Shown in pieces: positions 59,566 to 60,197 of a DNA stretch of 64,000 nucleotides; within the stretch, counting starts at the first letter, position 1, and each line of letters opens with the position of its first letter. The notes below the pieces were generated by a model, which saw only the letters and a program-made list of their open reading frames with translations, did no database searches and had not been told where the DNA came from. The stretch lies in contig CANQTV010000001.1 of assembly GCA_947626875.1 (NCBI GenBank), forward strand, positions 34,924-98,923, in the 5' to 3' direction. The DNA comes from an uncultured Clostridia bacterium (GTDB lineage Bacteria > Bacillota > Clostridia > TANB77 > CAG-508). The position numbers were made by a program, and so were the translations under genes.

Positions 59566-60162
59566 TTAACGCCCTATATTGGGCGTTTCATTTTGTTTTA
59601 GATGGTAAAAGTCTAAGTAAATTTTACAGTTTAGGTCTAGTCGAATTTCTCTGTTTCCCACTTAGCATTACTGCTAGAGCTGTTTCCATTTAAGGGAAAC
59701 ATTCATATTCTAATATGAACACCAGATCGCCACTTAAATCTGTACCTTAATCCTTAGACTTCTATGCTTTTATATAAAGCAAACATTCTAGAAGTTTTCC
59801 TTAACATATTTTTTGTTCTACTAGTCTTTTTTGCAAATGAAATTTCATAACTCGTGATATCGCTTGGCCAAATTGATATCTTTGATTTTTGTTAATCCCA
59901 ATACATTCACTCGAGACAGGCTACTCTATGTATTTTGTGTCTTGGCACGCAACATAGGTTTTACTTAAACTTTTGTTTTAAGCCTCCGCGAAAATAGGGG
60001 CTCTTATATATGCCATTATATAATACCCTAAATTCTTTACTCCCTATATTCACACAAAACTGGCATTTCGCGCAAATACAAGAAACTTCAACGATACGCC
60101 CTTTAGTGGATTTTTAGCCCCACCCTCGTAAAACACTATATGACTAGAATAATGCACCATCG
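59566..60162 (-). ncRNA. Candidate large structured non-coding RNA or very long leader (~600 nt), possibly OLE-like
   Basis: No ORF of 60 aa or more and no RBS-preceded ORF. A strong promoter lies at 60169-60197. There are many local hairpins (GTTTCC/GGAAAC, TTCATATT/AATATGAA, GCTTT/AAAGC, AACGCCC/GGGCGTT) and locally elevated G+C. A 4-TM protein gene follows. Confidence 0.45.
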
Positions 60163-60168
60163 ATATAT

Positions 60169-60197
60169 ATTATAACATTTTTTCTATTTTATTCCAA
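60169..60197 (-). promoter_or_regulatory. Sigma-A promoter driving the ORF-free region
   Basis: On the minus strand: TTGGAA (60192-60197), 17-nt spacer, extended -10 TGTTATAAT (60169-60177). Confidence 0.6.

Follow-up and report, generated by a model that had tools for sequence, protein, structure and literature searches.

The DNA analysed here is a 64,000-nt stretch (hereafter, the window) of contig CANQTV010000001.1, from an uncultured Clostridia bacterium of the TANB77 lineage, and its minus strand carries, from position 60197 to position 59014, what is almost certainly an ole-oapA locus: the gene for an OLE (ornate, large, extremophilic) RNA, a bacterial noncoding RNA of ~600 nt, followed by oapA, the gene for its membrane partner, OLE-associated protein A (OapA). 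The RNA belongs to an already known family and sits in a lineage in which OLE has been catalogued before. An earlier reading of the sequence (the original prediction) had proposed OLE RNA and oapA from size and arrangement, and this is borne out by a match to the Rfam family RF01071, by the OapA signature, and by covariation. The interval then marked, 59566-60197, does cover the OLE RNA but also takes in the promoter and a 3′ hairpin, the RNA proper being 60161..59601; neither of the fallbacks offered at the time, a large RNA of no known class or a leader of exceptional length, is needed.

The whole window was searched against Rfam 15 with cmscan, and positions 59000-61400 were searched again permissively (E up to 1). 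RF01071 (OLE) was the sole large match from the whole-window search: it extends over 59586..60176 (minus strand) and model positions 1-616 of 616, is not truncated, and reaches 335.3 bits (gathering score 50, E 7.7e-95); the permissive search repeated it and added no other meaningful family. In 59000-61400, ROOL, GOLLD, raiA, RNase P, transfer-messenger RNA (tmRNA), signal recognition particle (SRP) RNA and 6S RNA gave no match even at the permissive setting, in agreement with the earlier statement that RNase P, tmRNA, SRP and 6S hallmarks are lacking. The pairing of helix P1 and the minimum-free-energy (MFE) fold delimit a 561-nt core, 59601..60161 (minus strand), that runs from the 5′ strand to the 3′ strand of P1. 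The region had been described as some 600 nt free of open reading frames (ORFs), and no ORF longer than 56 aa is found on either strand between the promoter and 59538. The raised G+C content also noted is real and modest, at 34.6% in the OLE core, 27.4% in the window, 29.1% in oapA and 27.2% in tmk. As anticipated for a structured region, the OLE stretch folds (MFE −140.2 kcal/mol, z −3.66) better than 100/100 dinucleotide-preserving shuffles, and most OLE helices are already recovered by the unaided MFE fold. Of 249 highly conserved consensus positions, the window copy retains 198, and many of its departures are G-to-A or C-to-U, as expected in a genome with a G+C content of 27%.

Relatives were collected through the protein encoded downstream. 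A search with this protein returned thousands of homologues, 36 diverse members of which were aligned; the alignment guided the retrieval of 80 loci from species-representative genomes, and OLE was located in them by nhmmer with the window RNA. Almost all 80 are metagenome-assembled genomes (MAGs) of uncultured gut Clostridia, such as Clostridium sp. CAG:793, CAG:780 and 26_21; all come from Clostridia, Oscillospiraceae, Lachnospiraceae or Acetobacterium records, the most distant being Oscillospiraceae, Faecousia and Acetobacterium. In 79 of the 80 loci, OLE immediately precedes the protein gene in the same orientation, and the single locus without it has just ~200 nt of upstream sequence. The Rfam OLE threshold was passed at the predicted coordinates by 13/13 loci sampled across the identity range (248-471 bits), with scores of 310-347 bits in the window’s own clade.

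These homologous regions are conserved and covary strongly. A MAFFT alignment of 74 full-length copies, not fitted to any structure, was tested against the Rfam structure of the window row supplemented with hand-assigned P1, P2, P3.1 and P3. Standard pairs fill 88.6% of cells, and controls in which the 3′ strand is shifted by 1-3 columns reach about 42% (40-46%). Of the 169 pairs, 124 have changes in both partners; covariation scores 0.42, compared to ~0.1 for the shifted controls; and 0/500 shuffles reach any observed pairing or covariation measure. In the hand-assigned P1, P3.1 and P3, pairing is 92-100%, and almost all pairs show compensatory changes. Across these 74 sequences, which share 53-85% identity with the window, 139/591 columns (23.5%) are at least 97% conserved; published work describes ~25% of OLE nucleotides as almost invariant across species.

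The distance between OLE and oapA is ~50 nt in the window and 9 to ~1900 nt among relatives. In four of the fetched loci, L059 (OLE at 2554-3097, oapA from 5001), L001, L002 and L021, the gap measures 250-1900 nt, compared to the usual ~30-150 nt, which suggests insertions between the two genes. A further locus, L010, carries a skipping-rope RNA (RF02924, 45.8 bits against a threshold of 36.7) at 1302-1398 (plus strand), ~2.8 kb upstream of its OLE.

The gene that follows the RNA, oapA (59014..59538, minus strand), encodes an integral membrane protein of 174 aa, predicted to have four long helices and matching the ~174-aa protein with four transmembrane (TM) helices described in the original prediction. 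It is accepted as OapA because it displays the published features and is syntenic with OLE. Its AF2 model (pLDDT 93, pTM 0.83) has long helices at residues 2-30, 35-61, 88-122 and 127-153; hydropathy peaks mark TM1-3, and TM4 is more amphipathic. The DxxxD motif, published as distinctive of OapA and missing from CNNM domains, is present as D97-VIG-D101, and both aspartates are invariant in the 36 diverse homologues, at identities down to 33%. Foldseek places MtCorB (7M1T/7M1U) at the top of its PDB matches and fills ranks 1-5 and 7 with MtCorB and CorC (7CFF/7CFG), at probabilities of 0.93-1.0 and TM-scores of 0.5-0.6; 7M1U is also the published top match for OapA of Halalkalibacterium halodurans. 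A cluster of lysines (K70, K73, K74, K76, K79, K86 and K90) occupies the TM2-TM3 loop (residues 70-90), and the C-terminus is rich in lysine and arginine; by inferred topology, this basic cluster would lie on the cytoplasmic face. Compared by its published features, H. halodurans OapA (BH2780) is thus alike in length (~175 aa), in its four TM helices, DxxxD motif and basic cytoplasmic loop, in a CNNM-like fold with MtCorB as the best match, and in the position of its gene directly after ole.

The likeness to the CNNM Mg2+ transporters MpfA, CorB and CorC is one of transmembrane fold (Foldseek probability ~1, TM-score 0.5-0.6). Pfam CNNM (PF01595) stays below threshold, with 15.9 bits against a cut-off of 28.4 (E 0.01, residues 41-169), and the relationship becomes visible by fold comparison, since a sequence search of the PDB returned just weak noise: its matches to LolE and NuoN (E ≥ 0.016) were judged to reflect transmembrane helices. 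Unlike these transporters, the window protein has no CBS-pair or CorC_HlyC domains, has four helices instead of the three of the CNNM domain, possesses DxxxD, and has an RNA gene as its partner; it falls outside the CNNM transporter family. No curated Pfam or NCBIfam family for OapA was found that covers the 174-aa protein, and a 16-bit match to Acyl_transf_3 is spurious. By analogy with characterised members, this small four-helix CNNM-like protein, probably a dimer, would bind OLE RNA and anchor it at the cell membrane.

The RNA itself takes the canonical P1-P15 architecture, described here on the minus strand. P1 (GAUGGU/ACCAUC, 60161-60156 with 59606-59601) closes the molecule; it is 99.8% paired over the 74 sequences, shows compensatory changes at 4/6 pairs, and also appears in the MFE fold. 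The 5′ strands of P3.1 (CAUAU) and P3 (UGUUUUAC) lie at 60128..60142, with partners at 59805-59821, and form a joint 13-bp helix. P3.1 and P3 are 91.6% and 92.4% paired, and 12/12 tested pairs change on both sides; this helix, put at ~12 bp in published work, has been proposed to span the membrane (PMC12265935). The P4 hairpin (60105..60125) has a 99.5% paired helix and presents the A-rich loop CUAAAAAUCC (L4), invariant in 74/74 sequences. L4 is a known dimer bridge (PMC12286853, PMC12265935).

Directly upstream of P5 lies the J4a/5 strand, AUCGUUGAAG (60095-60086), which in other species belongs to the k-turn bound by OapC (PMC9723947); this strand is conserved in sequence, with UGAAG at 90% or more. 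P5/P5.1 (60040..60086) has covariation-tested helices and exposes the loop UGCCA at 60066-60060, while P6/P6.1 (59990..60035), with helices 88.7% and 98.9% paired, exposes the loop AAUGGCAU at 60017-60010, in which GGCAU is invariant. Read directly, the L5.1 UGCCA is complementary to the L6.1 UGGCA, its expected kissing partner in a dimer. P7 (59963..59983) is a 6-bp hairpin of 21 nt in place of 44 model positions. P8 (59925..59958) has a 5-bp base helix that covaries, and its inner part (GUGCCAAGACAC) is conserved in sequence, yet just ~3-4 pairs can form there. P9 (59821..59919) is full-length and carries the palindromic loop UUGGCCAA at 59871-59864, the candidate for a symmetric kissing-loop dimer bridge; among the 74 relatives, L9 contains GGCC in most and AGCU in 3, the covariation published in PMC12286853, and the distal part of P9 is missing in 14. 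P13 (59702..59719) is the hairpin UUCAUAU-UAGA-AUAUGAA. P14.1 (59661..59679) ends in the GNRA tetraloop GUAA, of which the G and the final A are invariant; its helix is 90.3% paired, with changes on both sides at 7/8 pairs, and in H. halodurans this loop is a weak secondary OapB site (PMC7936274). The sequence thus keeps the three elements that bridge the OLE homodimer in cryo-EM structures (PMC12265935, PMC12286853): the A-rich L4, the complementary L5.1/L6.1, and the palindromic L9.

A promoter with a −35 box TTGGAA (60192..60197) and an extended −10 box TGTTATAAT (60169..60177; TATAAT with an upstream TG), both on the minus strand, points into the RNA gene. This is the near-consensus arrangement TTGGAA-17-TGTTATAAT (60197..60169) that had been pointed out at first; with its 17-nt spacer, it scores 10/12, jointly the best in 58900-60700, and among the strongest sites it alone has an extended −10 and it alone is directed into the ORF-free stretch. 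A TATAAT-like −10 ends 7 nt before P1 in 74/74 related loci, from several Clostridia families, and the upstream TG, like a TTGnnA-like −35 some 17 nt upstream, is found in most of them. The Rfam OLE model treats these promoter bases as the 5′ flank of the RNA. This sigma-70-type extended −10 promoter would start transcription at P1 or a few nucleotides from it, the predicted start being ~60162-60160, at the first P1 base pairs. Given the constant placement of the −10 box, OLE in the window’s clade is most likely transcribed as a primary RNA with its 5′ end fixed by the promoter, unlike ole of H. halodurans, which is embedded in a long polycistronic operon.

At the other end, the stem AACGCCC/GGGCGTT of the original prediction is indeed found at 59587..59568 (minus strand), as the hairpin AACGCCC-AAUAUA-GGGCGUU (ΔG −11.1 kcal/mol) followed by AAUUUGAAUA. 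It starts 13 nt after P1; three U residues follow, and a terminator scan of the minus strand found the U-tract after the hairpin too weak to be called. Among the related loci examined, ~50 have non-homologous hairpins of at least −6 kcal/mol somewhere in the OLE-oapA spacer; in many relatives these lie 13-25 nt after OLE, and U-tracts often follow them. In the window, ~15 nt separate the hairpin from the start of the oapA ribosome-binding site, and the promoter scan found no promoter-like site on the minus strand between 60169 and 59538. The hairpin is probably a weak or leaky terminator, or else a structure that protects the 3′ end while allowing read-through into oapA: it would define or protect the 3′ end of much of the transcript, with some polymerases continuing, and oapA and the short-chain dehydrogenase (SDR) gene that overlaps it would be expressed by read-through from the OLE promoter.

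The same layout could be read differently, with the ~600 nt acting mainly in cis, as a leader or riboswitch-like attenuator that controls oapA and the SDR gene through the terminal hairpin, and not as a component of a trans-acting ribonucleoprotein (RNP). Such a leader would account for the apparent need to read through from the OLE promoter, as oapA seems to lack its own, and for the hairpin between RNA and gene, with analogous hairpins in relatives. Yet the RNA fully belongs to a family for which experiments have established a stable, abundant membrane-bound RNP and a dimer, an OLE-oapA spacer that ranges from 9 to ~1900 nt among relatives is ill-suited to a precise attenuator, and no riboswitch family matched the OLE locus in the permissive search of 59000-61400. 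Since co-transcription and a trans role are compatible, cis control would be at most an addition to the OLE RNP explanation, and we consider it extremely improbable as the main function.

Set beside full-length OLE RNAs (RF01071; H. halodurans and Clostridium acetobutylicum), the window copy is alike in its end-to-end model match, P1-P15 and conserved joining regions, in the L4, L5.1/L6.1 and L9 dimer elements, the J4a/5 k-turn strand and the P14.1 GNRA loop, in having oapA immediately downstream, and in a host among the anaerobic Bacillota. It differs in being A+U-rich, in its P7 (~44 nt in full-length RNAs; the cmscan alignment deletes 25 model positions there), in the barely paired inner P8, and in the tip of P13, where a perfect 7-bp stem with a UAGA loop stands in place of a GNRA tetraloop plus a bulge of one nucleotide. 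The short P7 is common to most close relatives, and Oscillospiraceae copies have a long P7. Both P13 features are needed for the primary OapB site (PMC7936274), so the primary OapB-binding determinants are absent. By its sequence, the copy can be described as mildly reduced, with P7 shortened and P13 without the loop and bulge for OapB.

A similar form is on record as ‘variant 1’ OLE, most frequent in uncultured gut bacteria of the TANB77 clade, with shorter P7-P9 and often no OapB site (Fernando & Breaker 2024, PMC11332333). The window copy has in common with it the short P7 and the lost OapB-binding nucleotides at the P13 tip, and its nearest relatives are likewise the gut MAGs named above; unlike ‘variant 1’, it has a full-length P9 with a kissing loop and a P8 of normal length, poorly paired. 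From its P7 and P13 traits combined with a full P9, it is therefore intermediate between the full-length and ‘variant 1’ forms. Among the small ORFs of the 64-kb window, inspection by eye revealed no candidates for OapB (KOW), OapC (L7Ae) or bS21, a stretch of this length being a poor guide to the genome as a whole.

Three observations qualify the OLE assignment at this locus: 14 of 144 Rfam pairs are non-canonical in the window copy, its 335 bits fall short of the 438-471 bits of classical full-length OLE in Oscillospiraceae and Acetobacterium, and P13 has neither the GNRA tetraloop nor the bulge. The last is compatible with OLE membership, as the P13 OapB site is also missing in ‘variant 1’ RNAs. 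Together with the truncated P7 and a frameshift in the adjacent SDR gene, which indicates some decay at the locus, they could mark a non-functional relic, recognisable to a covariance model and no longer selected in a reduced gut lineage. However, the whole clade scores 310-347 bits, so the lower score characterises the lineage and does not reflect decay of this one copy. Moreover, the structure covaries within the clade, the dimer loops are intact, conserved nucleotides are largely kept, the promoter is near-consensus and conserved in position, and oapA is intact with an invariant DxxxD. A relic is thus very unlikely, if slightly less so than a mainly cis-acting leader, and nothing contradicts membership of the OLE family.

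The surroundings of this OLE locus, from high to low coordinates along the minus strand, comprise NUDIX, an HD-domain hydrolase (on the plus strand), tmk, OLE, oapA, SDR, dinB, an alpha/beta hydrolase, DUF6514 and topA. The closest relatives repeat the stretch tmk-OLE-oapA-SDR-dinB, and DUF6514 and topA again lie beyond it; in Oscillospiraceae, too, dinB adjoins OLE, on its upstream side. Its presence beside OLE agrees with a reported link between ole and DNA-repair genes. The neighbours tmk, HD-domain hydrolase, NUDIX, SDR, dinB and topA set the locus apart from full-length OLE loci, with their isoprenoid-synthesis genes; no isoprenoid genes lie nearby in the gene context of the window.

The SDR gene (58270..59017, minus strand; Pfam adh_short, E 1e-40) has a start that overlaps the oapA stop (ATGA) and is probably co-transcribed with oapA; its product is no known component of the OLE RNP. 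One extra C near 58492 (a +1 frameshift) splits it into ORFs of 181 and 52 aa, with tgcccaCggaccagtt in place of the expected CPGPVATNF. The halves are in one frame in relatives such as L001; a two-part match recurs in 20 relatives, and an independent Logan assembly (L084) has the identical split. The split is either a real pseudogene or a systematic error common to related samples.

A long inverted repeat occupies 60271-60536, between tmk and OLE. Its arms (60282-60362 and 60446-60526) measure 81 nt, are 95% complementary, and flank an 83-nt spacer; as RNA, the element would fold with −172.8 kcal/mol (z −21.7). It starts directly after the tmk stop and ends ~75 nt upstream of the OLE −35 box. 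The tmk-to-OLE spacer is 360 nt in the window compared to ~140-170 nt in relatives, so the repeat looks like an insertion of ~250 nt. No second copy exists in the window, and searches for the arm in the 80 related loci and among JGI metagenome contigs, PLSDB plasmids and INPHARED phages found none. An identical first arm is present in three independent assemblies, each of which breaks off inside it; this makes it probable that the repeat is real. The orientation of its spacer is putative. No sigma-70-like promoter was found in the spacer. The plant miRNA precursor models MIR7533 and MIR1919, which matched at 60289-60519 below threshold, owe this to the long perfect hairpin of the repeat and not to biology. 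The repeat could be a miniature inverted-repeat transposable element (MITE)-like sequence or a transcriptional insulator.

Elsewhere in the window, all on the minus strand, cmscan found a tetrahydrofolate (THF) riboswitch aptamer (RF01831, 1564-1658, 60.1 bits against a gathering score of 36), and Rfam identified three tRNA genes (3416-3486, 51779-51849 and 51886-51958), the pair at 51.8-51.96 kb lying just downstream of a topA/spermidine-synthase-like block. Inspection by eye suggested a MazF/PemK-type toxin-like ORF (16304-16669), a YabP/YqfC-like sporulation protein (8613-8945) and a YlbF/YmcA-like ORF (4267-4602); putative sporulation genes would fit the reported correlation of OLE with sporulation proteins.

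What the locus may do can be read from the family, whose RNAs have been found in experiments to dimerise and to build an abundant, stable RNP bound to the membrane. By homology, the OLE RNA of the window would be a homodimer held at the membrane by OapA, and, as in H. halodurans, the RNP may help the cell withstand stresses such as short-chain alcohols, cold, excess Mg2+ and poor carbon sources. This OLE would be labelled by any annotation that uses Rfam, gut-Clostridia OLEs including reduced variants were catalogued in 2024 (PMC11332333), and the locus does not advance the question of the biochemical activity of the OLE RNP. Its modest value is to add a natural example of which parts of OLE can be done without: P7 and the OapB site in P13 have gone, and the P3 helix, the dimer bridges of P4, P5.1/P6.1 and P9, and the pairing with OapA are strictly kept. 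It also shows that OLE in the window’s clade has its own promoter exactly at P1. A more speculative proposal, which we hold to be possible and rather doubtful, is that this gut-Clostridia lineage has a streamlined OLE particle and, separately, that the ~265-nt perfect palindrome is an undescribed MITE-like element or transcriptional insulator. The streamlined particle may be built on a primary transcript, its 5′ end defined by the promoter and its 3′ end by the hairpin, and, devoid of P7 and the primary OapB docking site, it may work with OapA, perhaps also OapC, alone. If true, such a particle would mark the minimal functional core of the OLE RNP.

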